64,000 bases of DNA, taken from a virus (Duplodnaviria > Heunggongvirae > Uroviricota > Caudoviricetes). The stretch's first letter is position 1, and the number at the start of each line of letters is the position of its first letter. Location: positions 20,614 through 84,613 of IMG/VR virus record IMGVR_UViG_3300038443_000757; one strand, given 5' to 3'. The position numbers and the translations under genes were made by a program. The notes beneath the pieces are model-generated. The model was not told the DNA's origin. It saw only the letters and a program-made list of their open reading frames with translations, and searched no databases. This document shows, in pieces, positions 2,739 through 55,735 of this stretch.

Positions 2739-2753
2739 GGGAGAGGTTAATTA

Positions 2754-2990
2754 ATGGTTAAAAAAGAATTTACATTATATACAATTGGTGAAATTGTTGA
2801 TTTAATCGAAGAGGATGATCATGCTATCAATGTATCATGGTCAAGTCTTATGGGAAGCCATATTCGCATTGACAAAAAATCCAGTAAATTAATGATTAGA
2901 ACTTTGTATTCCTCCGAACATTCTTTAGAAGTGTATAAACATAAAACTCATGAACCAGAATGGATTTTAATGAAGGCAGATGAAGCGTGA
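2754..2990 (+). CDS. hypothetical protein
   Basis: 78-aa ORF, GGGAGAGG RBS. Confidence 0.5.
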   Translation: MVKKEFTLYTIGEIVDLIEEDDHAINVSWSSLMGSHIRIDKKSSKLMIRTLYSSEHSLEVYKHKTHEPEWILMKADEA

Positions 2991-3202
2991 TGAAACTTGG
3001 AGACGTTGTAAAGCATAAACGTTACGGCTACTATGGAACTGTAGAGTATTCTACATTTGGCTTTTCAATTCATACATGGAAAGATGGATATCTCACCAAG
3101 AGCCTTGGATTTGACGCTAGATATCTTTCTAAGCATTGGGAAGTCATTGAGCTTCCCGAAGGATGTAGGAAACATGAGAATGGTGGCATAGTGGATAATT
3201 AG
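2987..3202 (+). CDS. hypothetical protein
   Basis: ATGA overlap with the upstream gene; 71 aa. Confidence 0.45.
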   Translation: MMKLGDVVKHKRYGYYGTVEYSTFGFSIHTWKDGYLTKSLGFDARYLSKHWEVIELPEGCRKHENGGIVDN

Positions 3203-7709: not shown

Positions 7710-9020
7710 ATGTATAATGCATATGTAACTAGAATCAAAAATATTCGTAAACATTCTAATGCTGATCGTCTTCAGGTGGCAACTGTGTTTGGCAATGATG
7801 TAATTGTTGGCCTGAATACACAAGAAGGTGATCTTGTAGTGTACTTCCCAACAGATGGAAAATTGGGTGAAGAGTTTGCCAAAGAAAATAAGCTTACACG
7901 TGAGCTTGGCGGATATTTGGACGATAACAAGAGACATGTAACGACTATCAAATTGCGTGGTGAGCGTTCGGACGGCCTTATTCTTGGGATTGAAAGCCTG
8001 AGCAAGTTCACTGATGTTAGCAAGCTAAAAGAAGGAGATACGATTAGTGTACTTGGAGGCGTAGAAATTTGTTCTAAATATGTACCTTATCGTAAACCAT
8101 CTAATCCTAATCCTTCTAGCAAAGTTAAGACTAAGAAGGCGGTTGAAGACAAAGAGTCTTTCCCTTTGTTCAAAGAACATAGTGATACAGCACAATTGGC
8201 TTATAACCTTGGTCAGTTTAAAGCTGGTGACGAGTGCGTTGTTACGCTTAAGATGCATGGAACTAGTCAACGCACTTCTTATACGATCAAAGAAGAAAAG
8301 GTAGAGCAAGGATTTCTTGCACGGTTGTTCAAGAGGAAAGATAAAATTAATACATCTTGGGATTACGTAACTGGAACACGTAGAGTCACGCTTAAGACGT
8401 TTGACAGTGGTTTCTACGGCTCCAACTCCTTCAGGCAACAATGGCACGATCTGTTCGTTGGAAAGCTCCACAAAGGGGAGAGTGTTTACTACGAGGTTGT
8501 AGGATACACAGACACAGGTAGTCTGATTATGGGTGAGTGTGATAACACGAAAACGAGAGATAAAGAGTTTATTAAGCAATACGGCAAAACTACACAATTC
8601 ACATATGGTTGCGAGTATGGTCAAAGTGATATTTATGTTTACCGTATGACTATGACGAATGAAGACGGTAATATTGTTGAATATCCTTGGCATCTTGTTA
8701 AAACTCGTTGTGAACAGATGGGTGTCAAGCACGTTCCAGAGCTTACAAAAGTTACATTTGGCAATTTAATTGGTGGATTTGGAGATGCAGAAGAAGATGA
8801 ACGAAAAATGTTTATGCATGTTGTAAACCTCTATGCTGATGGGCCTGATCCAATTGGCAAAAGTCACATTAGGGAAGGCGTAATTGTCCGTATTGACAAC
8901 AAAGAGAAGTTTACAGCATTCAAACACAAGTCGTTTAATTTCAAAGTTTTAGAAGGATTAATTAAAGCTGATGCTGAAGCTCCTGACATGGAAGAAAATC
9001 AAGACCAAGTAGAAGAATAA
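7710..9020 (+). CDS. RNA ligase (Rnl2/Rnl5-like nucleotidyltransferase) with N-terminal OB-like domain
   Basis: Motif I LKMHGTS (KxHGT), motif III ESVYYEVVGY, motifs IV/V REGVIVRIDNKEKFTAFKHKSFNFK. Confidence 0.6.
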   Translation: MYNAYVTRIKNIRKHSNADRLQVATVFGNDVIVGLNTQEGDLVVYFPTDGKLGEEFAKENKLTRELGGYLDDNKRHVTTIKLRGERSDGLILGIESLSKFTDVSKLKEGDTISVLGGVEICSKYVPYRKPSNPNPSSKVKTKKAVEDKESFPLFKEHSDTAQLAYNLGQFKAGDECVVTLKMHGTSQRTSYTIKEEKVEQGFLARLFKRKDKINTSWDYVTGTRRVTLKTFDSGFYGSNSFRQQWHDLFVGKLHKGESVYYEVVGYTDTGSLIMGECDNTKTRDKEFIKQYGKTTQFTYGCEYGQSDIYVYRMTMTNEDGNIVEYPWHLVKTRCEQMGVKHVPELTKVTFGNLIGGFGDAEEDERKMFMHVVNLYADGPDPIGKSHIREGVIVRIDNKEKFTAFKHKSFNFKVLEGLIKADAEAPDMEENQDQVEE

Positions 9021-9034
9021 ATGGAGGAATCCAG

Positions 9035-9853
9035 ATGAAACAAAATGATATCATGAACAAACTTGAAAAACAGAAATCTATCCTAGAGTCAATGGGCTAT
9101 AAAGTAGCATTTATAGCCCTCTATGGCTCGCAAAATTACGGCCTTGACATCTACACTGACGAATACAAGTCTGACGTAGATATGAAAGCCGTTGTAGTTC
9201 CTGATCTTGATGATCTTATCTATAACAGCAAACCTGTATCAGAAGTAATTGACACAGAGTGGGGACAGTGTGATATCAAGGATATTCGCACTTACTTTGA
9301 AATTCTGCTCAAAGCTAATCCTGCATATATTGAAACGTTGTTCACAGAATACTTCATTGTTGATGAAGATTTTGTTGATGAGTTCTCTGAAATTCTTTCG
9401 CTAAGAGAAGAAATTGTATATTCCTTGAGAGCGCAATTTGTTAGAGCAATGTACGGAATGATGTGCGAGAAAGAAAAGGCATTGTGCCATCCTTACCCTT
9501 CTATTGCAGATAAGATAGAGAAATATGGGTATGACGGCAAACAGGCTCACCATGTTCTTCGCCTTTATTTGATGATGCTTGACTACTTTTATGAGTTCAA
9601 GACTATGGAAAGATCAATGAAACCAGATAAAGAGCATTATGATTCTCTAATGGATTTGAAAACGAACAAAGAAGATTTAGATACTGTTAAAGGCTATGTT
9701 TCTTACGTCATGAATCTTGCAAAAGATGTAAAAGAAAATATTCTATCTGAAATTAATGAATCTACAATTGACTTCTCTGTCAAACATAGATTTACAATAC
9801 TTTCGCATCGCATTATTAGGAATAAGATTATTTCTGAGATTTCTAAATCGTAA
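9035..9853 (+). CDS. Pol-beta-superfamily nucleotidyltransferase (RNA-repair-associated type)
   Basis: ALYGSQNYGLDIYTDEYKSDVDM gives GS...DxD. Sits between the ligase and the kinase. Confidence 0.6.
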   Translation: MKQNDIMNKLEKQKSILESMGYKVAFIALYGSQNYGLDIYTDEYKSDVDMKAVVVPDLDDLIYNSKPVSEVIDTEWGQCDIKDIRTYFEILLKANPAYIETLFTEYFIVDEDFVDEFSEILSLREEIVYSLRAQFVRAMYGMMCEKEKALCHPYPSIADKIEKYGYDGKQAHHVLRLYLMMLDYFYEFKTMERSMKPDKEHYDSLMDLKTNKEDLDTVKGYVSYVMNLAKDVKENILSEINESTIDFSVKHRFTILSHRIIRNKIISEISKS

Positions 9854-9860
9854 TGTACAG

Positions 9861-9892
9861 CGAGAGTTGTGTGGATACATGACTCTCGCTAA
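9861..9892 (+). other. stem-loop (GCGAGAGT/ACTCTCGC) without T-run
   Basis: 8-bp inverted repeat straight after the nucleotidyltransferase gene stop. Confidence 0.35.
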
Positions 9893-9907
9893 AACTGGAG
9901 GATAAAA

Positions 9908-10123
9908 ATGAACAGAACACTTAAACAATTTTTAATTGGCTTTTCAATTATACTTATTGCATCTATTATTGCCGTTATTATATCTGAATATCCTAATATT
10001 TTTAGATGGATTCTTATGGCAATTTGTGTGGTTTTAGGCTCTTTTTTTACTGGAGCACTGGCTTTAGAATTGTATGACACATATAAATGGCATAAAGAAT
10101 GGAAGGGGAAGGAACGAAAATGA
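9908..10123 (+). CDS. small membrane protein
   Basis: GGAGG RBS; two TM helices. Confidence 0.5.
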   Translation: MNRTLKQFLIGFSIILIASIIAVIISEYPNIFRWILMAICVVLGSFFTGALALELYDTYKWHKEWKGKERK

Positions 10124-11106
10124 GTAAATTAATCGTTTCTGTTGGCTTGTGTGGTTCTGGAAAATCGACTTATGCAAGCAAACTAGAGAACACTGTAATT
10201 CTATCGTCTGATGAACTTCGTCTTGAGCTTTACGGAGACGTGAACGATCAAACGCATAATGACGAAGTATTCAAAGAGTTGCATAAACGAGCTAAAGATG
10301 CTCTTAAAGAAGGTAAAGATGTATTCTATGATGCAACAAATGTATCTGCAAAGCGTAGAAAGGCATTGGTAGATGAATTCAGATCGCATGTTGATAAACT
10401 AGTTGCAGTTTACTTTGATCTTCCATACGAAATCTGCTTGGAACGTAATGCGAAACGTGATAGAGTTGTACCAGAACGTGTCATTGAGCGTATGTATAAG
10501 ACTCTTCAAATTCCTACGTATTTAGAAGGATGGGATGATATTCAAGCAGTTTCTTACTATCAAGATGTGTTGCGTAAGCTTTATAGTAAAGAGGATTTGG
10601 AAGAAATTATTCTAAATTATGAAATGACACATGAAGAACTGTTTGGACTTCATTTGTTTCAAAGTGAAACATTTAGAAAGATTTATAACCTAGCACAAGA
10701 CAATAGTTTTCATTCGTTCAGTGTAAGTAGACACAGTTACTATGTTTGGAAAGATATTGTAGATAACTATATGACTTATGACGGATATGATAGACTTGTG
10801 CTGGTTTGGGCGGCATTGTTCCATGATACAGGTAAATATTTCTGTAAAGAATTTACAGATGGCAAACGATATGCAAGTTTCATTGGACATGAGAATGTTT
10901 CTTCGCAGTTAGCATTCAATACCCTTATGAGTCTCGGTTACTCTATTGACTTTGTTCTTGATGTTGTTGACATTGTACAGAATCATATGAAACTCTTATC
11001 AATTGGCGATTCTAGTAAAGGTAAGAAAAAATTGCTTGACTTTGTAGGAGAGCCAGTATATAATATGCTTGTACGATTCAAAGAAGCCGATACAAATGCT
11101 AAATAA
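10120..11106 (+). CDS. polynucleotide kinase-like P-loop kinase fused to HD-domain phosphohydrolase
   Basis: Walker A GLCGSGKST, DATN Walker B of the PNK/Zeta type. C-terminal H...HD...H...D (SRHSY, LFHDTGK, GHEN, EADT). Confidence 0.65.
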   Translation: MSKLIVSVGLCGSGKSTYASKLENTVILSSDELRLELYGDVNDQTHNDEVFKELHKRAKDALKEGKDVFYDATNVSAKRRKALVDEFRSHVDKLVAVYFDLPYEICLERNAKRDRVVPERVIERMYKTLQIPTYLEGWDDIQAVSYYQDVLRKLYSKEDLEEIILNYEMTHEELFGLHLFQSETFRKIYNLAQDNSFHSFSVSRHSYYVWKDIVDNYMTYDGYDRLVLVWAALFHDTGKYFCKEFTDGKRYASFIGHENVSSQLAFNTLMSLGYSIDFVLDVVDIVQNHMKLLSIGDSSKGKKKLLDFVGEPVYNMLVRFKEADTNAK

Positions 11107-12540: not shown

Positions 12541-12813
12541 ATGAATAAGGCTGATATCGCATTTTTAACATTTATTGTATTGATGATTATTGGTGGTTGT
12601 GTAATAACAAATACAGATGCTGATGCAGTAAATAAAGAATATTTTTCTACTGTTGAGAACTTTAATTCAGCCGCAGGAGTTATCGTTGACAACTATACAG
12701 GTTGCAAATATATTGTTAATTGGAAAGGTGGAATCACTCCACTTCTTAATGAAGACGGAATTCCACAAGGATGTAAAAACTTAGGAGGTACAAACAATGA
12801 CACTAATGAATAA
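12541..12813 (+). CDS. putative lipoprotein/secreted small protein
   Basis: Signal-like N-terminus with an IIGGC lipobox-like motif. Confidence 0.45.
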   Translation: MNKADIAFLTFIVLMIIGGCVITNTDADAVNKEYFSTVENFNSAAGVIVDNYTGCKYIVNWKGGITPLLNEDGIPQGCKNLGGTNNDTNE

Positions 12814-13248: not shown

Positions 13249-13590
13249 ATGACAACTGCAACATTCACAATCACAGAAGAACATCTTAAATTGTTGAAGC
13301 ATATGTATGTCCGTTGGGATGATTGTGAGTTTGGTGCTCCAGCTATTGACTCCAAACGTCCTTATGGAAATGGTGATGTTATTGGAGACATGCATGAAAT
13401 TTTAACTGGACAATTCCTCGATGAAGAAGATGAAGATTACTATGACTACATTGGAGAACTGGAGAATAAATATACTAAGCTTCATGAACAAATGGAAACA
13501 GTTCTTCAAATTTGTTTAGCTACTCTCTCATTTGAAACGGGATTCTATATTAGAGAAGGATATGGCCTTAACTGGAGGAAAGTAGCATGA
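13249..13590 (+). CDS. hypothetical protein
   Basis: ATG after GGAAGGCAGG. Confidence 0.5.
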   Translation: MTTATFTITEEHLKLLKHMYVRWDDCEFGAPAIDSKRPYGNGDVIGDMHEILTGQFLDEEDEDYYDYIGELENKYTKLHEQMETVLQICLATLSFETGFYIREGYGLNWRKVA

Positions 13591-13757
13591 CATGGATGAC
13601 TCTTTTAGGAAGTGTGATTGTAGTAGGATGGTTCTTGTTGTTGTGGCTTACTCTTGACATCTTTATGGGATGGAAAAGAAAAGATAAATCGTATAAAGGA
13701 AAATTCATTTTTAACTGTGTTTGTATTCTATTATTGAGATGGGCGGGGTGGATTTAA
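13587..13757 (+). CDS. small membrane protein (56 aa)
   Basis: ATGA overlap, GGAGGAA RBS, Trp-rich TM segment. Confidence 0.35.
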   Translation: MTWMTLLGSVIVVGWFLLLWLTLDIFMGWKRKDKSYKGKFIFNCVCILLLRWAGWI

Positions 13758-13758
13758 A

Positions 13759-14091
13759 ATGTTGTTGCCAATGGTTGATGGTGGAATTTTGAGTGTGGAT
13801 TATGATAGTGAGTCTTATGGTGGATGCGATACTTGTGATTATGGCAGTTCTTACATTCGCAAATTTGATATTGGTTTAACTACGATAAACATTCATATAG
13901 AAACTGAAGAAATGTATGATTATGCCATTTCAGAATATGCCATTTCAGAAGATTTCATGATGAGAATGTTCCTTCATAATGTTGATAAAATCAGACAAAT
14001 GACGGAATTAGAGTTTTACGAATGGTTGGTAGCAATTGTAAGAGATGAAGTTGGAAGTTCTTTAGATTCATTCTATTATAACGAAGTGTAA
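13759..14091 (+). CDS. hypothetical protein
   Basis: GGGGTGGA RBS. Confidence 0.5.
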   Translation: MLLPMVDGGILSVDYDSESYGGCDTCDYGSSYIRKFDIGLTTINIHIETEEMYDYAISEYAISEDFMMRMFLHNVDKIRQMTELEFYEWLVAIVRDEVGSSLDSFYYNEV

Positions 14092-14108
14092 ATGTAATTT
14101 TTAAGTGC

Positions 14109-14137
14109 TTGACAGATGTAAGAATAAATGGTATACT
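14109..14137 (+). promoter_or_regulatory. class-A phage promoter (TTGACA-ga-TGTAAGAATAAATG-g-TATACT)
   Basis: Member of the repeated spacer-box family. Confidence 0.6.
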
Positions 14138-14168
14138 AGTAAAACATCGGTTAAGGAGGAAGAGGTAA

Positions 14169-14372
14169 ATGAAAAAAGGTAAGACAGTTAAAGGGTTTTA
14201 TATTCATGACAATGAAGGCGATGATCTTTGGGTAGAACAAAATACTGAAGTAATTTGCTTTGCATATGTAAAAAACGAAGAAGGTTACGTGACCTACTTT
14301 CCAAACTATGGAACATCTACTGTTATTGAAATGACTTTTATTAAATTTGAAGATGATCTACCAGTCTTGTAA
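14169..14372 (+). CDS. hypothetical protein
   Basis: AAGGAGGAAGAGG RBS. Confidence 0.5.
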   Translation: MKKGKTVKGFYIHDNEGDDLWVEQNTEVICFAYVKNEEGYVTYFPNYGTSTVIEMTFIKFEDDLPVL

Positions 14373-14379
14373 GAAGTTA

Positions 14380-14408
14380 TTGACATGATTGACAAGTTAT
14401 GCTATACT
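14380..14408 (+). promoter_or_regulatory. sigma-A promoter (TTGACA-17-TATACT)
   Basis: Upstream of the long SSB leader. Confidence 0.55.
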
Positions 14409-14492
14409 ATTTAAGTCTTAGAGAACAGCCAGCTAGAAAAACATAAAAAAGATTTAACTAAAACAAACAAATGTAACATAAACAAAACAACA

Positions 14493-14515
14493 GTTGGTAC
14501 ACATGAAGAATGTTT
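14493..14515 (+). promoter_or_regulatory. conserved leader box TTGGYA-ACRCATGAAGAATGYTT (copy 1, SSB leader)
   Basis: Near-identical copy at 15716-15738. Confidence 0.45.
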
Positions 14516-14576
14516 GATCTCTTGAGACTTATTTTTATGAAAATATAAAAATGAGATAACTCAGGAGGAATTAAAA

Positions 14577-15635
14577 ATGGGTAAAGAATTAGTACAAACA
14601 AAAGGTTCGTTCGTAATGAAGGGTATTGTTGATGGTCTTGCTAGGAATGGAGCATATAATGAAGGCAATGTCAATCAGGGTAAAAATGCTGGCAAAGAGT
14701 ATAAAACGATTCGCTTCCAAGTTCAAACGAGTGCAACTAATAAATTGAGTGTAGAACTGTTTGGTATGGAAATGGATCACGTATTCGCTTACAAGCATGG
14801 TAATAAGAAAAAAGGTACTAAAGGCGATACGAAACGCATTGACTTTGAAGATCGTCATGATGATCTACCTACTGGATATCAATTGATTGGTATCAATATG
14901 GGACTTGAACAAAACGAAGCTGGTAAAAATATTCGTACTACTATGGTTGCATATGATGCAGTTGAATATATCTATGACAATCTGAATGACGGAGACAGCG
15001 TTAAAGTTCAAGGCGAACTTCAATTCGGAGAATATGAGGGTAATCCTCAAATTCGTTATGTAATTAACAGCATTTATAAAGAGGCTGATATTGACTTTGA
15101 AGATGAAAAATTCGAAGAAGTAGCTGGATTCTCGCAGGAGATTGTTATTGCTGGAACGAACATCAATAGTGCTGACAAAACTCTTGAAATTACAGCATAC
15201 ACAATCCAATATGGTAATAAATTTACTCCTGCTCAATTTGTAATTCGTCCAGAAGATGACAAAGATTTGGCTAAACTTTTGAAGGCTTTCCAGAAGCTGA
15301 AATTTGGCGACTTCATCCAAGTTGAGGGTCTTTGCATGAACAATGCAGTAGTTACAGAAGTTAAGGAAGCTCCAAAAGAGAATCCATTTGGCGGCAAACG
15401 TCCAAAGGGCGTTCAGCGTGATACCGTTACAAACTATGTAACAGAACTTCAAATTACGTATGCTGATGGTGCAACTTACAAGAAAGGGTTGTACGATGAA
15501 GGAGACTTCGTTGAAGATGAATTGATTGAAGATGAAGATGAGGGCGAAGAGGAAGTTAGCTTTGGAGGCAAGAAAAAAGGTGGACTTGGCTCTGATGATG
15601 AGGAAGACATCTCGGAAGATGAATTGCCATTTTAA
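14577..15635 (+). CDS. ssb: single-stranded DNA-binding protein (two OB-like halves, acidic tail)
   Basis: C-terminal DDEEDISEDELPF acidic tip. Gly/Lys-rich linker; OB-like repeats. Confidence 0.6.
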   Translation: MGKELVQTKGSFVMKGIVDGLARNGAYNEGNVNQGKNAGKEYKTIRFQVQTSATNKLSVELFGMEMDHVFAYKHGNKKKGTKGDTKRIDFEDRHDDLPTGYQLIGINMGLEQNEAGKNIRTTMVAYDAVEYIYDNLNDGDSVKVQGELQFGEYEGNPQIRYVINSIYKEADIDFEDEKFEEVAGFSQEIVIAGTNINSADKTLEITAYTIQYGNKFTPAQFVIRPEDDKDLAKLLKAFQKLKFGDFIQVEGLCMNNAVVTEVKEAPKENPFGGKRPKGVQRDTVTNYVTELQITYADGATYKKGLYDEGDFVEDELIEDEDEGEEEVSFGGKKKGGLGSDDEEDISEDELPF

Positions 15636-15715
15636 TTTAGCACTAAATAACAGAGTAAATTAAACACACAGGAATGTCAGGTTAACAAAACAAAATAAAC
15701 TTTTAATATATTTAC

Positions 15716-15738
15716 TTGGCAACGCATGAAGAATGCTT
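15716..15738 (+). promoter_or_regulatory. conserved leader box (copy 2)
   Basis: ttggcaacgcatgaagaatgctt matches copy 1. Confidence 0.45.
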
Positions 15739-15770
15739 CCTGTGAATCTAAAAAATTCACAGGAGGAAAT
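15738..15770 (+). promoter_or_regulatory. RBS-sequestering hairpin CCTGTGAAT-ctaaaaa-ATTCACAGG(AGG)
   Basis: Perfect 9-bp inverted repeat whose 3' arm overlaps the SD of the 15774 gene. Confidence 0.45.
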
Positions 15771-15773
15771 AAT

Positions 15774-16859
15774 ATGTCTAAATTAAAAAATCTTAAAGTA
15801 AATGTACCAAAGGTTGCGATTGAAGATTATTTTTGGGTAGTTGCGGGGGTCGCTAAGGCTGGTAAGTCGTCACTGTTCGCAAAAGTTGCTGAAGAATACT
15901 TTGGAAATACTGACAGCGGATTGATTATTGGTTTTGAAAAAGGATATTCGGCCCTGAAGGTCAAAGCTGTTGATGTTGATGACTGGAATGACTGGGAGGA
16001 TATTGTTGACGATCTTGTAGAAAACAAAGAAGAATATGGACTCAAGCTCCTTGCTTTAGACACAGTTGATATTATGATGGATATGGCAATTGATCTTGTA
16101 ATTCAAGAGTGGAATGCTAAAAATCCATCTAAACGTACTAATGAAATTGGTGGAGTTGGAGCAAAGGGAAATAGTAATCAAGGCTTCGGAGTTGGGACGA
16201 ATCTGGCAAAGAAAAAAGTAAGAGATTCTATTGCCAAACTGCAAAAAGCTGGTTATGGAATTTTTGCAATTACTCATAGCAAAGATAAAAAAGTAGAAGA
16301 GAAAAATGGTGCAACATATGACCAATTGACTCTATCGCTTTCTGCAAGTGCTAATGAAGTGTTTGTTAATATGGCAGACTTTATTGTATTCCTTACTGTT
16401 GAAGCGGAGAAGAGTGGCAAAAACTTAGTATCTAAAAGGTACATCAACTTCCGTAGCGATGACTACGTTTCCATTGCTGGCTCTCGCTTTCAAAATGTTC
16501 CTAATCGTATCGAATATGATGTGCAAGAATTTCTTGAAGTCTTCCGAAATGCTGTTCAGTCTGAATTTGATTCTGGTGTAAACCTTGAACAAATCAAGCG
16601 TGAACAAGCTGAGAAGCGTGAAGCGGCGGCACAAGAGTATATTGATTCTTATAAATCCGAAAGCGGAAGTGATTCTGCAACCGCTGAAGAGCTAATTGAA
16701 TCTCTCAATACTGCTGTTAAAGCTCTTGATTCCAAGCAAAAAGTAAAAGTCACATCTGGTTTTAAAACAATTCTTGGAGGTACGGCTAATTATTCTAAGA
16801 TTGATGATGTTGAACTTCTTCAGAAATGCCTTGACTTAGTAGGGGAAATTGTGGGATAA
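15774..16859 (+). CDS. RecA-like/AAA_24-type ATPase (Sak4-like recombination/repair ATPase)
   Basis: Walker A VVAGVAKAGKSSLF, Walker B LLALDTVD. ATG after AGGAGG. Confidence 0.5.
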   Translation: MSKLKNLKVNVPKVAIEDYFWVVAGVAKAGKSSLFAKVAEEYFGNTDSGLIIGFEKGYSALKVKAVDVDDWNDWEDIVDDLVENKEEYGLKLLALDTVDIMMDMAIDLVIQEWNAKNPSKRTNEIGGVGAKGNSNQGFGVGTNLAKKKVRDSIAKLQKAGYGIFAITHSKDKKVEEKNGATYDQLTLSLSASANEVFVNMADFIVFLTVEAEKSGKNLVSKRYINFRSDDYVSIAGSRFQNVPNRIEYDVQEFLEVFRNAVQSEFDSGVNLEQIKREQAEKREAAAQEYIDSYKSESGSDSATAEELIESLNTAVKALDSKQKVKVTSGFKTILGGTANYSKIDDVELLQKCLDLVGEIVG

Positions 16860-16912
16860 TCTACCTCTAACATCATGTTTTAACAAAAACTTAATAGATT
16901 TGAGGGTAGCAT

Positions 16913-17671
16913 ATGAATAGAAAGAACGTAGTTATTGCGCTAGTTGTTTCATTGGCTGTGACGAGCGGTACGCTTTTTACAACCAATCCTACAAATGTAG
17001 GCAGTAATGAAGTTTCTGAAGTTCCTAGCATTGTTGCTGATGTACCAACAATGCTAGAACTACCTCTCTTTAAGTACAGTCATGTGAATGAGATGGCGTT
17101 AAACGTACAAAAGGGAAAAGCAGAAGCTACAAAAAAGGAAACAGAAGTGAAGAAAGCTCAGCCGAATATTAAGACTGTCGAAACTGTTAAAAGAGTGGCA
17201 ACAGTAAAAAAGGTTGAATCTTTCAGAAAGTATGAAATTCCTTTACCAAGCTCTATGCAATCCTTTATTTGGGATTTGTGTAAAAAGGAAAATGTTGATT
17301 ATGAATTGGTATTGGCAATTATATCATCTGAAAGCTCGTTTAATGCAAAAACAGTTTCATATGACAATTCAAGCCGTGGATTAATGCAAGTCAATACACG
17401 CACAACCTTCTATCCTATGGCTAAGAAATTAGGCATAAGAAATCCTGATGTATTTAATGCTGAAGACAATATTCGTGTTGGTATTCATTACATAGCGACA
17501 CTTATTGACGCTTGGGACAGTAAATATTCAGGTATTGAGTTAGAGAAGCGTGTTATTTTAAGTTATCGCTTTGGTGTTGCTGGTGCAAAGAGGCATAGTG
17601 TTAATCATGCATATGTCAAGAAGGTTAGAGGAATTCAGAATAGCCTTCGGACGAAAGGTAAATTAAGTTAA
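16913..17671 (+). CDS. lytic transglycosylase (SLT domain) with N-terminal TM anchor
   Basis: ESSFNAKTVSYDNSSRGLMQVN SLT signature; N-terminal hydrophobic segment. Confidence 0.7.
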   Translation: MNRKNVVIALVVSLAVTSGTLFTTNPTNVGSNEVSEVPSIVADVPTMLELPLFKYSHVNEMALNVQKGKAEATKKETEVKKAQPNIKTVETVKRVATVKKVESFRKYEIPLPSSMQSFIWDLCKKENVDYELVLAIISSESSFNAKTVSYDNSSRGLMQVNTRTTFYPMAKKLGIRNPDVFNAEDNIRVGIHYIATLIDAWDSKYSGIELEKRVILSYRFGVAGAKRHSVNHAYVKKVRGIQNSLRTKGKLS

Positions 17672-18277: not shown

Positions 18278-18306
18278 TTGACAAGTGTAAGAATAAATGG
18301 TAGAAT
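18278..18306 (+). promoter_or_regulatory. class-A phage promoter (TTGACA-ag-TGTAAGAATAAATG-g-TAGAAT)
   Basis: Spacer box conserved. Confidence 0.6.
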
Positions 18307-22243: not shown

Positions 22244-23245
22244 ATGATAGCTATTGGTTCAAAGGCAATGCTTGTTAATAGACAAGGCGATAAACGATTT
22301 ATTAGCTCCGATTTTGATGTCATCATGAGCGTTGAAGACTTCCAGAAGTGGAGCAATGACAATCAAGATTTCATCAAGAAGATTTATCCAACTGGAAACA
22401 ATAAATTTAAAGCTATTGTTTATACAAAAGACGGTTCTGAGAAACAATATGAGATTGAACTTGGATTAAAAGGAACATCATCTGCTTTTCTTCTTGACAA
22501 CATGACTGAAACTTGTTCTTCTCTAGAAGTACATGGAGTGTTCGGAGAAGTTTATAATACAATCTATCTGGAATATCAATTCTTGACAAAGAAGTCTCAC
22601 ATTATTTATCCAGTTCACTTTGAGAAGAATATTGCAGATTATCATCACATTCTTGAACTTCTTAAATACAATTATGACAACTTCAATTACCAGCAAGACA
22701 AATTTATGGAGAAATATTACGAACTTCGCAGTGATGAAGCTAAAGAACGTTACAAAAAGTTTAAGACTCCTAAACTGAATGTAACTAATGAAGATTTCTT
22801 TAGTTCCAAGCTTGCGGTTAAACGGTACTTCATTCACGATGATATCCATCAGATGGTTAAACATCATGACAAGCCAGTGTATGAGATGATGAAGAGGGAT
22901 TTTGACAAGGCTTGGTGCGAGAAGGATATGTTCTTTGCGCTTCCAAAGGAAATGCAGATTCAATGTGTACAGGAAGAGGCGTACACTATCTCTCTTGAAC
23001 GATACATCATTCCACATGCAGAAGGATGGCAAGACCCACTTGACTGTTACAAACGTGCTGTGAAGCGTATATGCACTACGCTATGTTCTGGATGGTTCAG
23101 AGACTTTGCAATCGAAAATTATCCAGAGATTATTGCACGATACGATAAAGATTTTGTAAAAAAGTTTAAACAGAAATTTGAAAATGGTGAGATTAAATTG
23201 GTTGAAGGAAAGACAATCGAAGACTTGCCTGAAATTGTAGTTTAA
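22244..23245 (+). CDS. hypothetical protein with nucleotidyltransferase-like GS...SDFDV motif
   Basis: N-terminal IGSKAMLVNRQGDKRFISSDFDVIM; His-rich FIHDDIHQMVKHHD patch downstream. Confidence 0.45.
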   Translation: MIAIGSKAMLVNRQGDKRFISSDFDVIMSVEDFQKWSNDNQDFIKKIYPTGNNKFKAIVYTKDGSEKQYEIELGLKGTSSAFLLDNMTETCSSLEVHGVFGEVYNTIYLEYQFLTKKSHIIYPVHFEKNIADYHHILELLKYNYDNFNYQQDKFMEKYYELRSDEAKERYKKFKTPKLNVTNEDFFSSKLAVKRYFIHDDIHQMVKHHDKPVYEMMKRDFDKAWCEKDMFFALPKEMQIQCVQEEAYTISLERYIIPHAEGWQDPLDCYKRAVKRICTTLCSGWFRDFAIENYPEIIARYDKDFVKKFKQKFENGEIKLVEGKTIEDLPEIVV

Positions 23246-25786: not shown

Positions 25787-25942
25787 ATGAGAAAGATTAA
25801 AAAGAAAAATGACACTTTGTTATCTGCAATCAAACAAACTCGCAGTAGAGATTGGGGATTTAAGCCAACTAACAGAGTCATTGCAGATAAAAGAAAGAAG
25901 CAAAAGAGGGAAGCATGTCGGATTCGAATAGATGAAGAATAA
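25787..25942 (+). CDS. small basic protein (51 aa), speculative
   Basis: Lys/Arg-rich ORF under 60 aa, lying between a promoter and a large-loop hairpin. Confidence 0.25.
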   Translation: MRKIKKKNDTLLSAIKQTRSRDWGFKPTNRVIADKRKKQKREACRIRIDEE

Positions 25943-46483: not shown

Positions 46484-47863
46484 ATGTTAAAAGATTTATT
46501 TTCTAATCCTCTTATTTTGACTGATACGTACAATCTATCTCATCAATTTCTCAAGTTCAATAATGACTGGGAAGTTAGCCATGTTTATAATAGAAAGCGT
46601 CCAATGGTACTTTATGGGGTTTCTGAAGCTGTAAATCGTGTTCTTTCTATTAAAATTGAAATGTGGATGGTTGACGAAGCTGAACAATATGCAAAAGAAA
46701 AAAGTATGCCATTCCCAAGAGAGTTGTGGGAACGAGTTGTAAATGAATTCAATGGCTATGCACCAATCATGATTGAATCTCTTCCTGAAGGATCATATAT
46801 TCCTGCTGGTACACCATTCATGCAGATTCGTAATACCGTTGAAGGATTTGGCGAATTAAAGGATTGGTGGGAAGGTATTATTCTTCAAAATGCTTTTGCC
46901 TCTGGTTGCGCTACACGTGCATATGAAATGGCAAAGTATCTTAAAGACAACGATCTTCCAATGATTCGTTTTCATAGTTTTGGATGGCGTGGGCATCAAT
47001 GTCCAGAAAGTGGATATTGGGCTGGTACTGCTTGGAATCTATTCCTTGTAGGAACTGATGATTTCCATACTAAAAAGCATACACCAAAAGCCAAGATTGG
47101 TAGCATTCCTGCACTTGCACATAAGGTAACTCAGCAATTCGATAAAGAATATGATTGTTATATTCGTGCAATTGATTTTGCTGTCAATACGCCACTTCGA
47201 ACTGTGGCATTAGTTATTGATACTTATGATGCTAATCGTTTTATTAATCAGTATCTTATTGGCCTTGCTCGCTATGCACTTGACAAAGGTGTCCATATTG
47301 TTTGCCGTCCTGACAGTGGAGATGTTCTTGATCAAGCTATTGAGATTTACAAAGTATGTATTGAAAACAATCTTGCAAACGTCTCTGTGATCATTGGAGA
47401 AGGCATTACGTTTGAGGTGGTCAAAGCATATGATGCAAAGCTTAAAGATGCTGGAGTGCCATTGGCGTTCGTCTCTTATGGTATTGGTGCTGGATTCTAC
47501 AAGGACATTGACCGTGACTACCTTGGATTTGCAATGAAGGTTGCATTCTCTAATGGTAAGCCACGTATGAAATTTGGAATGACAGCGTTGAAGCGCAGTA
47601 TTCCCGGCAAGGTTTCTATCATTAAAAAAGACGGAGATTTGCTCGTCATTCCTGAAGGAAGTCTTATGTCCTATACGTACAATGATCTTTATGAGATTAT
47701 TTATGTTCATGATGACACTACTGAAGAGCCAATTATCAAAACAACTGAATGGAATGAAATTTATGATCGTGTTCAAGAAGTTGATGATCATCAAAAAGTA
47801 ATCTACATTTCTCAGGAAATTGAAAATATGATTGCTGAATTCAAAGAACAATATAAAGGGTGA
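46484..47863 (+). CDS. nadV: nicotinamide phosphoribosyltransferase (NAMPT/NadV)
   Basis: N-terminal NPLILTDTYNLSH (cf. NAMPT ..TDSYKVTH); about 460 aa type II PRTase. Confidence 0.8.
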   Translation: MLKDLFSNPLILTDTYNLSHQFLKFNNDWEVSHVYNRKRPMVLYGVSEAVNRVLSIKIEMWMVDEAEQYAKEKSMPFPRELWERVVNEFNGYAPIMIESLPEGSYIPAGTPFMQIRNTVEGFGELKDWWEGIILQNAFASGCATRAYEMAKYLKDNDLPMIRFHSFGWRGHQCPESGYWAGTAWNLFLVGTDDFHTKKHTPKAKIGSIPALAHKVTQQFDKEYDCYIRAIDFAVNTPLRTVALVIDTYDANRFINQYLIGLARYALDKGVHIVCRPDSGDVLDQAIEIYKVCIENNLANVSVIIGEGITFEVVKAYDAKLKDAGVPLAFVSYGIGAGFYKDIDRDYLGFAMKVAFSNGKPRMKFGMTALKRSIPGKVSIIKKDGDLLVIPEGSLMSYTYNDLYEIIYVHDDTTEEPIIKTTEWNEIYDRVQEVDDHQKVIYISQEIENMIAEFKEQYKG

Positions 47864-47868
47864 TATGT

Positions 47869-48642
47869 ATGGAAATGAATATGAACAATAAAGATGCAAA
47901 TGGAGATATTATTAGCGCAACACCGCCTAGGCCTTGGACAATTGGCGATCCTCCACCATATAATCATGAAAAAAATAACACAATCTGGACTGGGCCATCA
48001 ACTTTCCCATATCTTACACCTATGCCTAAAAAACCATTTAAATTTGGTTTTTTGCTTGGACGATTCCAGCATATTCATATTGGTCATGAACAAATGATTG
48101 ATAGAGCGCTTGATGTTTGCGAGAAGGTTTTGGTCATTGTTGGCTCTGCACAAGATGATGCACGAATTACCAATCCAATTCGCAATCCGTTTGAAACTCA
48201 TTTTCGCATTAGGCTTATCAATGAGATTTATAAAGACAAGCCAAATCTCTTTGTAACGTCTATGCCTGATTTGACTCACGAAAATGATCATAGCTGGGCA
48301 TGGGGCAACTTTGTTCTTCAAAATGTTGCACTGCGAGCTAATCAGTATGATATCAAAGAAAGTCCTGATATTATGGTTTTTGGTAATGACGAAGAAAGAA
48401 TGTCGTGGTTTAATCCAGACGATATCAAGACAGTTAATCAACTGATTGTTGCGCGTGGAAACATTGACATTAGTGCTACTCAAATGCGCAATTATCTTGT
48501 TGAAAATAATTTTTGGAAATGGCGGCAGTATGTAAACTTGAAACTTTCACCATTGTTCCCTGTAATTCGTGAAGAACTTTTCAAAGTAGAACACTACAGA
48601 AAGTTGGCTGAAGAAAATGGAACAATCAATGCCCACAAGTAA
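47869..48642 (+). CDS. nicotinamide-nucleotide adenylyltransferase (NadM/NatV-type)
   Basis: GFLLGRFQHIHIGHEQMI (HxGH nucleotidyltransferase motif); ISATQMR C-terminal motif. Confidence 0.75.
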   Translation: MEMNMNNKDANGDIISATPPRPWTIGDPPPYNHEKNNTIWTGPSTFPYLTPMPKKPFKFGFLLGRFQHIHIGHEQMIDRALDVCEKVLVIVGSAQDDARITNPIRNPFETHFRIRLINEIYKDKPNLFVTSMPDLTHENDHSWAWGNFVLQNVALRANQYDIKESPDIMVFGNDEERMSWFNPDDIKTVNQLIVARGNIDISATQMRNYLVENNFWKWRQYVNLKLSPLFPVIREELFKVEHYRKLAEENGTINAHK

Positions 48643-51232: not shown

Positions 51233-53539
51233 ATGGAATTAAATGTAATTGATAATTGTGCTTGTTGTGCAACTGAAGATGGATTTGTAAATCTCCATTT
51301 ACACACAGCATATTCGCTTCTCGATGCACTTAGTAAGCCAGAAGATATTATAGCAAAAGTAAAAGGTTTAAATCAAAGAGGATTTGCTTGTACGGAACAC
51401 GGCAACGTTCATAGTTCTGTAAAAGCTTATAAATTGGCTAAAGAAAATTCTTTGAAGTTTATTTATGGATTAGAGGCATATATCACTGAAGATAGATTTA
51501 TCAAAGATAAAACAAATAAATACTATCATCTAACTATCCTAGCAAAAAATGAACAGGGTAGACAGAACATCAATAAGCTTGTAACAATCTCCAATCTTGA
51601 AGGATTTTATTTTAAACCTCGTATTGACTTTAAATTGCTTGAAGAATTTGGTGATGGCTTAATCATCATGTCAGGATGTATGGCCTCTGAATTGCAACAA
51701 GCATTAGCTGGAGGAAAGATTGGTAATGGTGATGTTGAAATAACATCTGGCAACATTGAGAGAGCCAAAGAAATTGCAAGACGTTATCGTAATGCATTTG
51801 GTGAGGATTATTATCTTGAAGTTCAATCACACAGAGATAAGCGTCAACAGCAATTAAATCGTGCGATAGTTGACATTGCAAAAGACTTAGGCATTCAATG
51901 GGTTGCTACTGCTGACAGTCATTTTGTCAATGAAGAAGATTTAGATTTGCACAGGGTTTTCATTGGTATCAACCGTAACAAAGACGATTTTGAATCTGAC
52001 GAAACATATCAAGACACACAGATTCAAAGTGAAAAAGAGGCATGGAATCTTCTTATGTCTTTGACTGAAGATGAGCGTAATGTTGCAATTAGGAATACTC
52101 TGAACATAATGGATAAATGCAATGCTCCATTGCCACTTTCAGCACCTTTAATTCCTCATGTTAAAGTTCCAGAAGGTTTTGAAACTGAGGAAGATTACTT
52201 GCAACATTTGTGTAACGAGGGATGGAAGTTTAGGAAGATTGGATATAAATCAAAGAAGCTTCAACAAGAATATAGGGACAGACTTATTTATGAATTTAAT
52301 GCGATCAAGGATATGGGATTCACAGGATACTATCTCCTTGTTTATGGATACGCAACATCTGTTCGCAGAAGAGGTATTGCACGTGGTTCTGGTGGAGGTT
52401 CGCTTGTAGCTTATCTGATTAATATTGTAGATATTGATCCAATTGAACATGGATTGTATTTTGAGCGCTTTATTGATGTTGCCCAACTTGATTTAATCAA
52501 GAGTGGAGAGCTTAAGCCTGAAGAGATTAAAATACCAGATTTTGATTTGGATTTCGGCACAAAAGAACGCGATCTTGTCTATAACAATATCGTTACTGAA
52601 CATGGGTATGAGCATGTTGTAGCTCTTGGTCAATTTGGTTACATCTGGACCAAGAGCGCTATCAAGGATGTTGGTAGAGTGCTTGGAGTGCCATTTGAAG
52701 TAACGAATGAGATAACGAAGCTACTAGGAGAGGATACGATTGCAGAAGGGCTTACAAGTGGCATTCTGAAGCCCTATCAGCGTCAATATCCAAGACTGTT
52801 TGAGTATGCAATGAAACTAGAAGGATTACCCCGCTCATATGGAATGCATCCATGCGGTAAGGTAGTAACGATTGATCCTGCTGTTTATTATACAGGATTA
52901 TCACAGAAGGAAGGTCAGCTTGTCTTACAAGTTGACATGAAAGATGCAGAAGCACTTGGTTTAGTTAAGGTAGATTTACTTGGACTTCGTACAGTTGATG
53001 TAATCTATGACACACTAGATATGATTGGCAAGGACACTGAATATATCCGTAACATCACATACGATTGTGCTGAGATGTTAGAAATCTTTAAAAATGGATT
53101 TACTGACGGAGTTTTCCAGTTCGAGAGCGAAGGTATGAAGCAAACATTGATAAATATGATTCCTACCCATTTAGATGATCTAGGAGTTGTAAATGCTCTG
53201 TATAGGCCAGGAAGTTTGAAATATATCAAAAACTACATTGATAGGAAGCACGGAAGAGAACAATTTGAATATCTTCACCCTGATCTTGAACGTATTCTTA
53301 AAATCTCTTATGGCATTATTGTATATCAAGAACAACTGATTGAGATTGGACGAATGGCTGGCATGCGTAATCCAGACCTTTTACGTCAAGCTACAGGTAA
53401 AAAAGATATGAAGAAACTTGCGAAAGCTGAGCCTGAACTTCGTGATGGCTTGTACAAAAGAGGTTGGACAAAGGAGCAGGTAGATCAATTGTGGGAAGAT
53501 ATGCTGAACTTCGCCAAATATTCATTTAATAAAGCCCAT
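51233..53539 (+). CDS. dnaE: DNA polymerase III alpha (DnaE-type) exon 1: PHP domain, palm and fingers up to FNKAH
   Basis: PHP motif VNLHLHTAYSLLDAL; ends in the conserved YSFNKAH fingers motif. The 3' boundary is inferred. Confidence 0.7.
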
Positions 53540-53714
53540 AAAATGTGTGTGGCTTAGTGTGGCGACATACTAAGAAAATCCTTCTAATTGCGGGGAACTC
53601 CTAAAGACTTCAATACCAACTTAATATGGTGACATGATTAAGGGCGTTGCTAACTACAACGATATGGTAAAAAGTTGAAGTATAAATAATATGGACAATC
53701 CGCATCGAGACTTC

Positions 53715-53743
53715 TTGAAATAATTTACATCCCATGATACAAT
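53715..53743 (+). promoter_or_regulatory. promoter for intron ORF (TTGAAA-17-TACAAT)
   Basis: Inside the intron, upstream of the AAAGGAGG RBS of the HEG. Confidence 0.4.
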
Positions 53744-53766
53744 AGAAAGAAAGGAGGTTATAAATT

Positions 53767-54771
53767 ATGGCAAAAAAATATACTCAAAAACAAAAAGAAC
53801 TTATTTTAAAATTATATCAAGAGGCACAAGACTTGGATGAGGCTATATTAAGATTAAAAGAACAAGGAATAGTCATGACTAGGCAGGCAATGGCTGATAT
53901 GGCTCACGATAATGGTATAAAAAGAAAAAGAATTTATACAAAACAAAACAAATTATCAGTCATAGAGATAAGGCAATTAGTTTCAGATTATGAGTCTGGT
54001 ATTTTTACTATGGAAGAATTGATAAAAAAGTATGGTTTTAAAACAAGAAAATCAATAACAGATAAAGTTAAACTTTATAATGGCAAAATGAGAACGCAAG
54101 ATGAAGCTAATAAAATGAGAAAAACTTATGAAGAAACAATGTTTAATAAGCTTGATGCGGAATGGAAAGCTTATATGGTTGGACTGCTTCTTACCGATGG
54201 TTATATTACCAATGATCAAATAGGACTTGATTTAACCGATGAAGATGCAATAAGTTATCTTGCAGAAATGACTGGAAAGGGTAATTACACGACAATTGTT
54301 GATAGTTGTAAAAGTAAAAAGGCAAAATATAGACTAACTCTTAATTCTAAAACAATTATAGATGATTTGACTAGATTTGGGGTTGTGCCAAGAAAATCTC
54401 TAACATTAAAGGGGCCGTTGCTCAATGAAGATGAAAGAAATTATATTCCACATATCTTTAAAGGAATTATTGATGGAGACGGCTGGATTAGAAGTGATGG
54501 CAAAGAATTTTTTATCGTTTCTGCTTCAAGAGATTTTCTTGAGTGGTGCATAAAAGAGTTAATTCTATTAGGAATGAGTAATTTAAAAATTACTCAAAAA
54601 ACATTTGATAATGAAAAGTGGAATGACTGTTTTCTTGTTAGGACTGCTCTTAAATCAAATATAACTATTTTAAAAGAGAAAATATACGTCTATGACTTAG
54701 GGATGGGTCGTAAACGTGAAAAATTATTTCAAGAAGGGCGTTCAGAGACTACCACAAGGAAATCTCAATAA
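53767..54771 (+). CDS. LAGLIDADG homing endonuclease (double-motif) with N-terminal helix-turn-helix region
   Basis: Two LAGLIDADG motifs: MVGLLLTDGYI and FKGIIDGDGWI. Confidence 0.8.
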   Translation: MAKKYTQKQKELILKLYQEAQDLDEAILRLKEQGIVMTRQAMADMAHDNGIKRKRIYTKQNKLSVIEIRQLVSDYESGIFTMEELIKKYGFKTRKSITDKVKLYNGKMRTQDEANKMRKTYEETMFNKLDAEWKAYMVGLLLTDGYITNDQIGLDLTDEDAISYLAEMTGKGNYTTIVDSCKSKKAKYRLTLNSKTIIDDLTRFGVVPRKSLTLKGPLLNEDERNYIPHIFKGIIDGDGWIRSDGKEFFIVSASRDFLEWCIKELILLGMSNLKITQKTFDNEKWNDCFLVRTALKSNITILKEKIYVYDLGMGRKREKLFQEGRSETTTRKSQ

Positions 54772-54844
54772 ACTTTGAGATTATGGTATAGTCCAGACCA
54801 CAACGTATATATAATGCGACTAAGGAAATCTTAGTGTGGTAAAG

Positions 54845-55735
54845 TCACAAGCTTATGCAATTATTGCAATGATCTGTGCATATCTGAAAGCATTCCACCC
54901 AACTGAGTTTATGTGTGCATGGCTTAACTCCTTAGTAGATCATCACGATAAAATTGAAACTGCTTTCAAAGAGGCTAAACGAATGGGAGTTAAAATAAAG
55001 CCATTAAATTTCAAAGATGCAAATGCTTTATGTAAAGTGGTTGATGGAGAGCTTGTCTACGGAATCTCTTTGATTAAACACTGTAACGCTCAGATTGCAG
55101 AAGATATTGCAAAGCTTCAGCCAGCAAATCGTTTTGTTGATATGATCATTCAAATCAAAGAACTTACTTCAATCAACTCTAAACAACTTGATATCCTTAT
55201 CAAACTTGATTTCTTCTCTGAGTATGGAAGCAAAGAACTATTGCTTACAATCCTTAAAGAAGTCAACGATGGCAAGAGCAGATATAACAAGACGCACAAG
55301 GAGGCAACTAAGCTCAAACGAATTGCGGCACTTCATGAATATGAGGACGAGCTTAGACAGGGACAAGTTGACTTGTCCATTAAACCATATGAACAAATTG
55401 CATTTGAACTTGATCATTATGGTTTCATCAAAACAACTTTTAAAGAAATTCCTAAAACAATACTAGCTGTAATGGATATCGACATGAAGCCTAAAACAGC
55501 TTATATTGCAGTTAAGTCATTCTGCTATAAAACTGGAGACACGTTTGAGTTCAGAGTCAAGAAGGATAAGTTTTATGGCAAAAAAGATATTGAATCTTTT
55601 GAAGTTGGAGATTCCATTAAGATCAAAAATCTTTCTGAAAAAGCTAGAGTACGTAAAGATGAAACTACTGGCAAATGGATTGAAACTGGAGTAAATGATT
55701 ATTATCTTGAGAAAGCAATAAAAATAAAACTATAA
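54845..55735 (+). CDS. dnaE: DNA polymerase III alpha (DnaE-type) exon 2: rest of fingers, HhH and C-terminal OB region
   Basis: SQAYAIIAMICAYLKAFHPTEFMCAWLNS aligns to DnaE ([25 protein letters not shown]). Confidence 0.65.
   Translation, partial: SQAYAIIAMICAYLKAFHPTEFMCAWLNSLVDHHDKIETAFKEAKRMGVKIKPLNFKDANALCKVVDGELVYGISLIKHCNAQIAEDIAKLQPANRFVDMIIQIKELTSINSKQLDILIKLDFFSEYGSKELLLTILKEVNDGKSRYNKTHKEATKLKRIAALHEYEDELRQGQVDLSIKPYEQIAFELDHYGFIKTTFKEIPKTILAVMDIDMKPKTAYIAVKSFCYKTGDTFEFRVKKDKFYGKKDIESFEVGDSIKIKNLSEKARVRKDETTGKWIETGVNDYYLEKAIKIKL

Follow-up and report, generated by a model that had tools for sequence, protein, structure and literature searches.

What are two near-identical boxes doing in the leaders of two neighbouring replication genes of a large phage? 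The question is raised by a 64,000-nucleotide (nt) stretch of the IMG/VR record IMGVR_UViG_3300038443_000757 (Caudoviricetes), here called the window, in which one box precedes the gene for a single-stranded DNA-binding protein (SSB) and the other that for a Sak4-like ATPase. From comparative folding we propose, at a probability of about 0.62, that the boxes are the conserved core of a cis-acting leader RNA that would serve both genes as a translational switch with two alternative folds. The boxes and genes, with the boxes placed by reading the sequence and by exact string location, are laid out as follows:

14494-14516, plus strand: box 1, TTGGTACACATGAAGAATGTTTG, in the SSB leader
14577-15635, plus strand: SSB gene, YorF family (PF27337), OB-fold, 352 amino acids, acidic C-terminal tail ...DELPF
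15716-15739, plus strand: box 2, TTGGCAACGCATGAAGAATGCTTC, in the ATPase leader
15774-16859, plus strand: ATPase gene, AAA_24 / PHROG 'Sak4-like', 361 amino acids

The initial annotation had placed near-identical boxes at 14493-14515 and 15716-15738. Their near-identity is borne out (TTGG, AC, the exact 11-mer CATGAAGAATG and TT are common to both, making 19 identical positions with one indel), while the real span of box 1 lies one base further on. Likewise, the end of box 1 is 60 nt from the SSB ATG (14577), as had been claimed, and the end of box 2 is 34 rather than 35 nt from the ATPase ATG (15774). A search of both strands finds the core CATGAAGAATGYTT at only two sites in the 64 kb; the motif has no copies beyond the two leaders and is not scattered at non-leader positions. 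An 11-mer repeat by itself is unremarkable at this scale. The SSB and ATPase leaders align over nearly their full length with a score of 42, against 27.3 +/- 3.0 for shuffled sequences, and beat 1000 of 1000 of these.

DNA fetched around SSB and ATPase homologues provided the comparison set. The element is found in at least eight phage or prophage lineages including the window, with at least 12 instances; pattern scans of metagenomes and genomes gave mostly chance hits among the matches listed, and both counts are lower bounds. It precedes the ATPase gene in all eight lineages, namely the window, L038, L039, L370 (= L061/L092/L369), L453 (Paenibacillus sp. FSL R7-0302), L455, L458 and L459 (Paenibacillus alvei), and additionally the SSB gene in four of them (the window, L370, L455 and L459). 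Where two small open reading frames (ORFs) separate SSB and ATPase, as in L038, it is the ATPase that the element accompanies. Before the ATPase gene of L038, L039, L370, L453 and L458 stands the exact core GCAACGCATGAAGAATGC with a CYTGTGA... arm behind it, and L455 and L459 carry box variants with compensated changes that keep the pairing. The only new copies among the matches listed in scans of viral, metagenome and genome collections were those of L061 and L092, and a profile search for ATPase loci in IMG/VR returned mostly distant relatives without the element. An exact 19-mer match in L029 sits in a coding region and was not counted.

Folding and alignment give the element as a leader RNA of about 80-115 nt, arranged as a three-way junction of P1 (7-9 bp), P2 (5-8 bp) and P3, a 4-bp hairpin whose invariant GAAGA loop is closed by a U-A pair. 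In every instance P1 forms between the bases immediately 3' of the box and a stretch 60-100 nt upstream, and P2 between the 5' portion of the box and the stretch that comes directly after the P1 5' strand. The box is the P2 3' strand, the 2-nt joiner AC and P3, that is, the conserved heart of the junction. Box 1 consists of the P2 3' strand, the joiner AC, P3 (ACAT-GAAGA-ATGT, 14501-14513) and the first bases past P3; box 2 consists of the end of the P2 3' strand, the joiner AC (15722-15723), P3 (GCAT-GAAGA-ATGC, 15724-15736) and the start of the P1 3' strand. A free-standing linear operator is ruled out by this membership of the box in a covarying junction. The SSB and ATPase copies have the layout in common and differ in their helix sequences. 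In both, the junction adjoins a hairpin that buries the Shine-Dalgarno (SD) sequence, termed here the sequestor. In the list below, the SSB P1 was read from the minimum-free-energy (MFE) fold of the aptamer and from RNAalifold on three SSB-type leaders, and the ATPase P1 from folding and RNAalifold.

14415-14427, plus strand: SSB leader, P1 5' strand GTCTTAGAGAACA of an interrupted helix
14428-14434 with 14492-14498, plus strand: SSB leader, P2 GCCAGCT/AGTTGGT, enclosing a 57-nt loop with 67% A
14501-14513, plus strand: SSB leader, P3, GAAGA hairpin
14515-14528, plus strand: SSB leader, P1 3' strand, overlapping the sequestor 5' arm (14518-14526)
14527-14568, plus strand: SSB expression platform, with an inner hairpin (14527-14555), the 3' arm CTCAGGAG (14560-14567) and the SD AGGAGG (14563-14568)
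15667-15674 with 15737-15744, plus strand: ATPase leader, P1 CACAGGAA/TTCCTGTG
15675-15682 with 15714-15721, plus strand: ATPase leader, P2 TGTCAGGT/ACTTGGCA, enclosing an A-rich 31-nt loop without G
15724-15736, plus strand: ATPase leader, P3, GAAGA hairpin
15737-15747, plus strand: shared strand, of which TTCCTGTG (15737-15744) pairs with the P1 5' strand and the whole with 15755-15765 in the sequestor
15755-15766, plus strand: ATPase sequestor 3' arm ATTCACAGGAG and the SD AGGAGG (15761-15766), before the start codon at 15774

Folded singly up to the P1 3' strand, the aptamer parts give the P1-P2-P3 junction as MFE structure in 11 of 12 cases. Under a strict topology test, which required contiguous P1 and P2 helices of at least 4 bp at the right places, 7/12 natural leaders show the junction, against 0-8 of 300 runs (about 1%) with the upstream half shuffled. 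The ATPase aptamer of the window has z = -4.21 relative to shuffles and its full leader z = -4.61 (0/200 shuffles); the reverse strands fold worse, at z = -2.79 for the full ATPase leader and +0.29 for the SSB aptamer. With a covariance model built on the ATPase type (R1), the scores are 78.9 bits for 15665-15746 and 30.6 bits for the SSB copy, these being the only two sites of the window to score well, both on the plus strand. A structural descriptor finds the ATPase copy only, with about 0.25 matches per shuffled window. The P2 loops (26-57 nt) consist of 58% A and 6% G, compared with 38% A and 19% G in intergenic DNA of the window, and are evidently kept unstructured. The sole other covariance-model match with E below 0.1 (22738-22805; 21.9 bits, E = 0.011) has P1- and P2-like helices around AATGAAGAT; it lies inside a DUF7275 ORF, is without a proper P3 and is taken as a chance match.

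The helices are also kept by compensatory change. On an unguided MAFFT alignment of the eight ATPase-type aptamers (alignment A4), RNAalifold predicts P1, P2 and P3; 92.1% of the alignment's cells pair, compared with 33-51% when the partners are slid by 1-3 columns, both sides have changed in 13 of 20 pairs, and none of 500 shuffles reaches the observed values. P3 alone occurs as GCAT:ATGC, ACAT:ATGT, GTAT:ATAC, GCAT:GTGC, GCAT:GTGT, GCAT:ATGT and GTGT:ATGC, with the U-GAAGA-A tip kept in all 12 instances and the loop never changing. From three SSB-type leaders RNAalifold yields the same junction. The ATPases of the box-positive lineages are 52-67% identical and their SSBs 46-69% identical; by sequence comparison the core is better conserved than the proteins behind it and appears to be under strong selection.

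This pattern bears directly on the idea that the boxes are a signal read in DNA (an operator, or a promoter for a phage polymerase or sigma factor) or a coding feature (an upstream ORF, or an N-terminal extension of the ATPase beginning at the ATG within the box). A conserved 23-bp box before genes does resemble a phage-polymerase promoter, but compensatory changes in three helices and matches on one strand only argue for RNA, and a promoter at the boxes was rejected, with no -35/-10 match and a GG/GC spacing that does not fit sigma-54. As for coding, the ATG of box 1 opens a 4-codon ORF and the JGI gene caller begins the ATPase at the box ATG, but this ATG lacks an SD, is in frame in only 3/12 instances and is GTG in one, which led us to reject this version as well. 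We regard the DNA-level and coding readings as remote. The gene call itself (P0043, 15726-16859, 377 amino acids, MKNASCESKKFTGGNN-MSKL...) is probably mis-annotated at its start, to judge from homologues of the ATPase, which begin at the downstream ATG; a likely wrong start in public data is thereby corrected.

The sequestor is what would connect the junction to gene expression. The 9-bp hairpin that had been described over the ATPase SD is upheld by the perfect inverted repeat CCTGTGAAT (15739-15747) / ATTCACAGG (15755-15763), which reaches 11 bp with a G-U pair (15737-15747 / 15755-15765) and in this longer form takes in AGGAG of the SD AGGAGG. Overlooked at that stage was a corresponding hairpin in the SSB leader, in which TCTCTTGAG (14518-14526) pairs with CTCAGGAG; this platform has z = -3.62. 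In 12/12 instances the P1 3' strand doubles as the sequestor 5' arm, and hence the junction and sequestor folds exclude each other. The sequestor hairpin is the MFE structure of all 12 full leaders, with the SD paired at 4-5 of 5 positions in each, and is more stable than the junction by 1.4-9.9 kcal/mol; when the junction is forced, the SD is paired at only 0-2 of 5 positions in 10/12 leaders. Sequestor stems vary in sequence and length by lineage and always use the strand next to P3. In the ATPase type the P1 5' strand CACAGGAA nearly copies the SD-side arm CACAGGAG, and we predict that it acts as an anti-sequestor, a decoy that competes for the partner of that arm. In a ranking of SD pairing among 110 crude gene calls of the window, the SSB and ATPase genes come 8th and 9th.

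From these two folds we infer that translation is the regulated process, that the junction is the 'on' state and that a trans-acting effector stabilizes one of the folds. The junction would be transcribed, and thus form, first, leaving the SD free and translation on, while the more stable sequestor fold would pair the SD and turn translation off. The time for which the junction resists invasion by the SD-side arm would then set the yield of SSB and ATPase from a shared transcript, and a factor recognizing the conserved junction or the GAAGA hairpin would decide how long it holds. Sak4-type proteins are reported to work with a cognate SSB (PMC5928155, PMC5499656), which makes co-regulation of the two genes plausible.

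The layout is that by which riboswitches are generally recognized, namely a covariation-supported aptamer and an expression platform mutually exclusive with an aptamer helix (12/12), and it raises the question of whether the junction binds a metabolite, such as a nucleotide or another signal of the deoxynucleotide (dNTP) pool, that would lock P1 and turn on translation of the replication and recombination proteins. A conserved, covarying aptamer joined to a variable platform through a strand in common with P1 is the classic arrangement, the junction-closing pairs and the AC joiner are almost invariant in the ATPase-type copies, and the phage has nucleotide-metabolism genes (ribonucleotide reductase (RNR), dNMP kinase and NAD salvage). 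Against such a ligand stand the scarcity of conserved unpaired nucleotides from which a pocket could be built (2 in the joiner and 5 in the loop), a P2 loop whose length and lack of structure are atypical of aptamers, the lack of any matching Rfam class, and the differing joiners of the SSB type (AC, G or UAA; UUGA, UUG or AAGG), for which the signal would presumably be the same. In translational 'ON' riboswitches with three-way-junction aptamers, for example the add adenine riboswitch, the P1 3' strand is likewise common with an SD-sequestering helix. The P1-P2-P3 junction and the free SD of the P1-formed state are alike in the present element and the add type; the present element differs in having no L2-L3 loop-loop contact, joiners of 0, 2 and 0 nt and a long unstructured P2 loop. 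We consider a metabolite ligand unlikely, if a serious contender.

Our favoured effector, at slightly under even odds, is an RNA-binding protein of phage or host origin that recognizes P3 or the junction. It is favoured because the two subtypes differ in their joiners and have mainly P3 and the topology in common, and because the P3 tip is a known peptide-binding fold. In lambda boxB, a GNRNA loop and its closing U-A pair are the determinants of recognition by N (bioRxiv 10.1101/2025.04.11.648485), and all 12 instances have a GNRNA pentaloop closed by U-A. Moreover, N bound at nutL acts at a distance, across a structured stretch of leader, to repress its own translation (PMC5725501). The P3 tip, identical to that of wild-type boxB, and the long leader are points of likeness to nutL; the differences are a 4-bp AU-rich stem set in a junction, an alternative pairing that acts directly on the SD, a Gram-positive (Paenibacillus-type) host, and the window's lack of detectable downstream terminators or an N-like arginine-rich protein. 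The boxB and nutL resemblances are leads by analogy and not tests. The most arginine-rich product of the window is a basic 51-amino-acid ORF (25787-25942; MRKIKKKND...ADKRKKQKREACRIRIDEE; 16% Arg), which might, speculatively, be a candidate RNA-binding factor. No conserved partner for a GAAGA-UCUUC pseudoknot was seen on inspection by eye. Further, ACAGGAUG in the P1 5' strand may lend itself to a CsrA-like reading.

The same tip could instead mark a nut-like site, where a boxB-type hairpin would let an N-like antiterminator modify RNA polymerase and control would be transcriptional. The identity of the apical 7 nt of P3 (U-GAAGA-A) with wild-type boxB and the presence of two copies in the genome region, both in leaders as with nutL and nutR, fit this scheme. 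We nonetheless judge it very improbable: a terminator scan over 10-20 kb of the window found no intrinsic terminator-like site downstream of either copy, the stem is short and AU-rich and forms part of a junction, the window encodes no small arginine-rich protein, no boxA-like element caught the eye in alignments A2-A4 (which were not formally searched for one), and the coupling to an SD-sequestering hairpin, kept in 12/12 instances, is something antitermination would not require.

The initial annotation likened the box and hairpin to the translational operators that SSBs use for autoregulation in phage T4. The best reading is indeed translational control through a leader RNA tied to an SD-burying hairpin; the gp32 and RegA specifics do not carry over. 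In the gp32 operator, a 5' H-type pseudoknot some 67 nt upstream serves as the nucleus for cooperative binding along an A+U tract overlapping the ribosome-binding site (RBS) (PMC3014915). By analogy, excess SSB would coat the A-rich tract of the present leaders, melting P2 and the junction in favour of the sequestor fold. The two systems agree in being a phage SSB leader with a structured element and a long unstructured A-rich tract, in control at initiation and in a link between SSB supply and demand; the composition of the P2 loops would suit a binder of single-stranded DNA or RNA, and the element stands in the SSB's own leader in four lineages. They part in that the present structure is a covarying three-way junction and not a pseudoknot (no Rfam pseudoknot match was found, and pseudoknot-aware folding was not run), in that the A-rich tract is enclosed as the P2 loop and parted from the RBS by P3 and the sequestor, so that no A+U tract runs into the RBS, and in that an explicit hairpin blocks the RBS. 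SSB autoregulation is not the obvious logic, because the element is an obligatory companion of the ATPase gene and 4/8 lineages lack it in the SSB leader; generic coating of RNA would also leave the strict conservation of P3 and GAAGA unexplained, and SSB residues do not co-vary with the presence of the motif. We hold an SSB operator of the gp32 kind to be improbable. The other T4 operators resemble the element in serving phage replication genes by repression at the RBS, but the RegA operator is an unstructured A+U-rich sequence over the AUG (PMC3014915), whereas the boxes are base-paired, lie 34-60 nt upstream of the starts and have no RegA features; and the gp43 operator, in which a small hairpin with a specific loop precedes the start (PMC3014915), has its hairpin and flank directly overlapping the RBS, with no switch by alternative pairing.

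A last question is whether the element needs an effector at all. The relevant promoter is the following:

14380-14408, plus strand: sigma-A-type promoter, TTGACA-17-TATACT with TG extension, 11/12 match

Its spacing would put the start of transcription near 14415 and the SSB element at the 5' extremity of the mRNA. No terminator-like site and no good promoter were found by scanning the SSB-ATPase interval, and SSB and ATPase are therefore probably on one transcript. An effector-less element could be a 5' stabilizer that guards against RNase J1/Y, a processing signal cut by a host or phage endonuclease, or a co-transcriptional timer that lets translation burst before the RNA refolds. In both the window and L370, P1 of the SSB copy begins at the +1 predicted for a strong promoter, giving a base-paired 5' end; the consistently greater stability of the sequestor makes kinetic control plausible without a ligand; and between genes with no terminator or strong promoter separating them, a processing site could uncouple their levels. 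But neither a stabilizer nor a timer needs an invariant GAAGA loop or near-invariant junction pairs when the proteins themselves are only 52-67% identical, and the SSB-leader element of L459 lies about 85 nt downstream of the likely promoter, which shows that the 5'-terminal position is not general. The odds of such an element replacing the switch are poor; that the switch itself works without an effector, as a purely kinetic or stability-based device, is somewhat less doubtful and still rather unlikely. The promoter belongs to a series of near-consensus TTGACA-17-TATAxT promoters on the plus strand (12686-12714, 14109-14137, 14380-14408 and 18278-18306), most with a TG extension, whose sequences suggest strong early transcription units dependent on host sigma-A.

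Several points weigh against the two-fold switch and its effector. All of the evidence is computational, and we infer the direction of the switch. The comparison rests on about 5-8 independent lineages, several of the instances being close relatives. The P3 stem has just 4 bp, 5/12 leaders fail the strict topology test, owing to bulges, and the SSB aptamer of the window is thermodynamically weak alone (z = -1.56), being only marginally stable because of its 57-nt loop. From an unguided alignment of all 12 full leaders RNAalifold recovers P3 only, MAFFT having been unable to register P1 and P2 across the SSB and ATPase subtypes. The window shows no enrichment of GAAGA hairpins with stems of 4 bp or more (10 of its 326 GAAGA sites, about 6 expected). 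Concerning the effector, no ORF of the window, which covers 64 kb of the roughly 169-kb genome, has more than 4 Arg in 15 amino acids; the short flanks at hand contain no genes that co-occur with the motif; and no ATPase or SSB residues track its presence among the motif-positive and motif-negative lineages.

The relatives that lack the motif speak to its history. L032, L034, L035, L037 and L469 group more tightly, their ATPases being 66-94% identical, and the ATPase of the motif-positive L453 is 66-71% identical to theirs, nearer than to most motif-positive lineages. Because the motif-positive lineages are mutually distant, the motif-negative ones cluster and L453 falls near that cluster, the element looks, on protein relationships, to be ancestral and to have been replaced in one branch. 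The SSB-ATPase spacers of motif-negative relatives (L032 3940-4000 and 5081-5170; L034, L035, L037, L469 and L371) contain a GC-rich hairpin without a T-run, whose stems include GGAG/CUCC, e.g. GGAGTGTTG...CAACACTCC and ACTCCGGTT...AACCGGAGT, and in L032, L034 and L035 the two leaders have another box in common, ACAAATAKAAGATAAAAT..ACATGGAG. These relatives may use an SD-mimic or anti-SD switch in place of the GAAGA element. Elsewhere among the relatives, in L375 (about 2170-2500) and L372 (about 2740-3000), the ATPase gene is broken just before Walker A by structured-looking non-coding sequence, which may be a group I intron; the protein P0079 of an interrupted ATPase relative opens with unrelated residues.

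The window as a whole represents the region for early functions and replication in a large siphophage of Firmicutes, AT-rich at 34.5% GC, and carries Pol III alpha, RNR, RecJ and a primase-like Toprim protein as well as an RNA-repair cluster and NAD salvage genes. The relatives of its proteins in large siphophages of Bacillus, Brevibacillus and Lactococcus share no more than about 35% identity with them, and closer ones come from uncultured contigs and from genomes of Paenibacillus. The DNA polymerase III alpha gene is apparently split into one part (51233-53557) that has the PHP, NTPase and finger domains and a C-terminal HHH_6 piece (54836-55735), with a LAGLIDADG homing-endonuclease-like ORF (53767-54771) between them; an intron or mobile insertion is the likely cause of this split (51233-55735). 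The RNA-repair-type cluster (an RNA ligase with a PHA02142 OB domain, an RlaP nucleotidyltransferase and an AAA_33 kinase + HD phosphatase) and the NAD-salvage genes (NAMPT/NAPRTase-like, and an NMNAT-like cytidylyltransferase) occupy 7710-11106 and 46484-48642 and probably have counter-defence functions.

Is the element known? Against Rfam 15, the region 13500-17000 of the window gives, at E <= 10, only chance snoRNA-type matches elsewhere, and seven box-positive loci give nothing at their leaders at E <= 1. In INPHARED (50,697 phage records) nothing relevant was found by megablast with 14000-17000 or by distant blastn with 14373-14580 and 15700-15776, and blastn with the L453 leader found no match in phages or 72,556 plasmids. 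The core sequence was not found in the literature searched, and on the regulation of SSB or Sak4 leaders only the T4 and lambda precedents turned up there; a review of T4 knew of no riboswitch system in that phage (PMC3014915). On the predicted folds, the element looks like a new family of translational switch. Tentatively, it may represent an undescribed class of phage regulatory RNA, either a new replication-metabolite riboswitch or the first Gram-positive-phage counterpart of N-boxB, redeployed to activate or repress translation and coordinating SSB with its partner, a Sak4-like recombinase. Outside T4, phages rarely control replication or recombination genes through structured leader RNAs of their own, and a small, two-state element apparently under strong selection would allow a direct test of how a large phage of Firmicutes keeps its SSB and ATPase in balance. 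If the effector proves to be a metabolite or a small peptide-like protein, the element would also be a compact new regulatory part.

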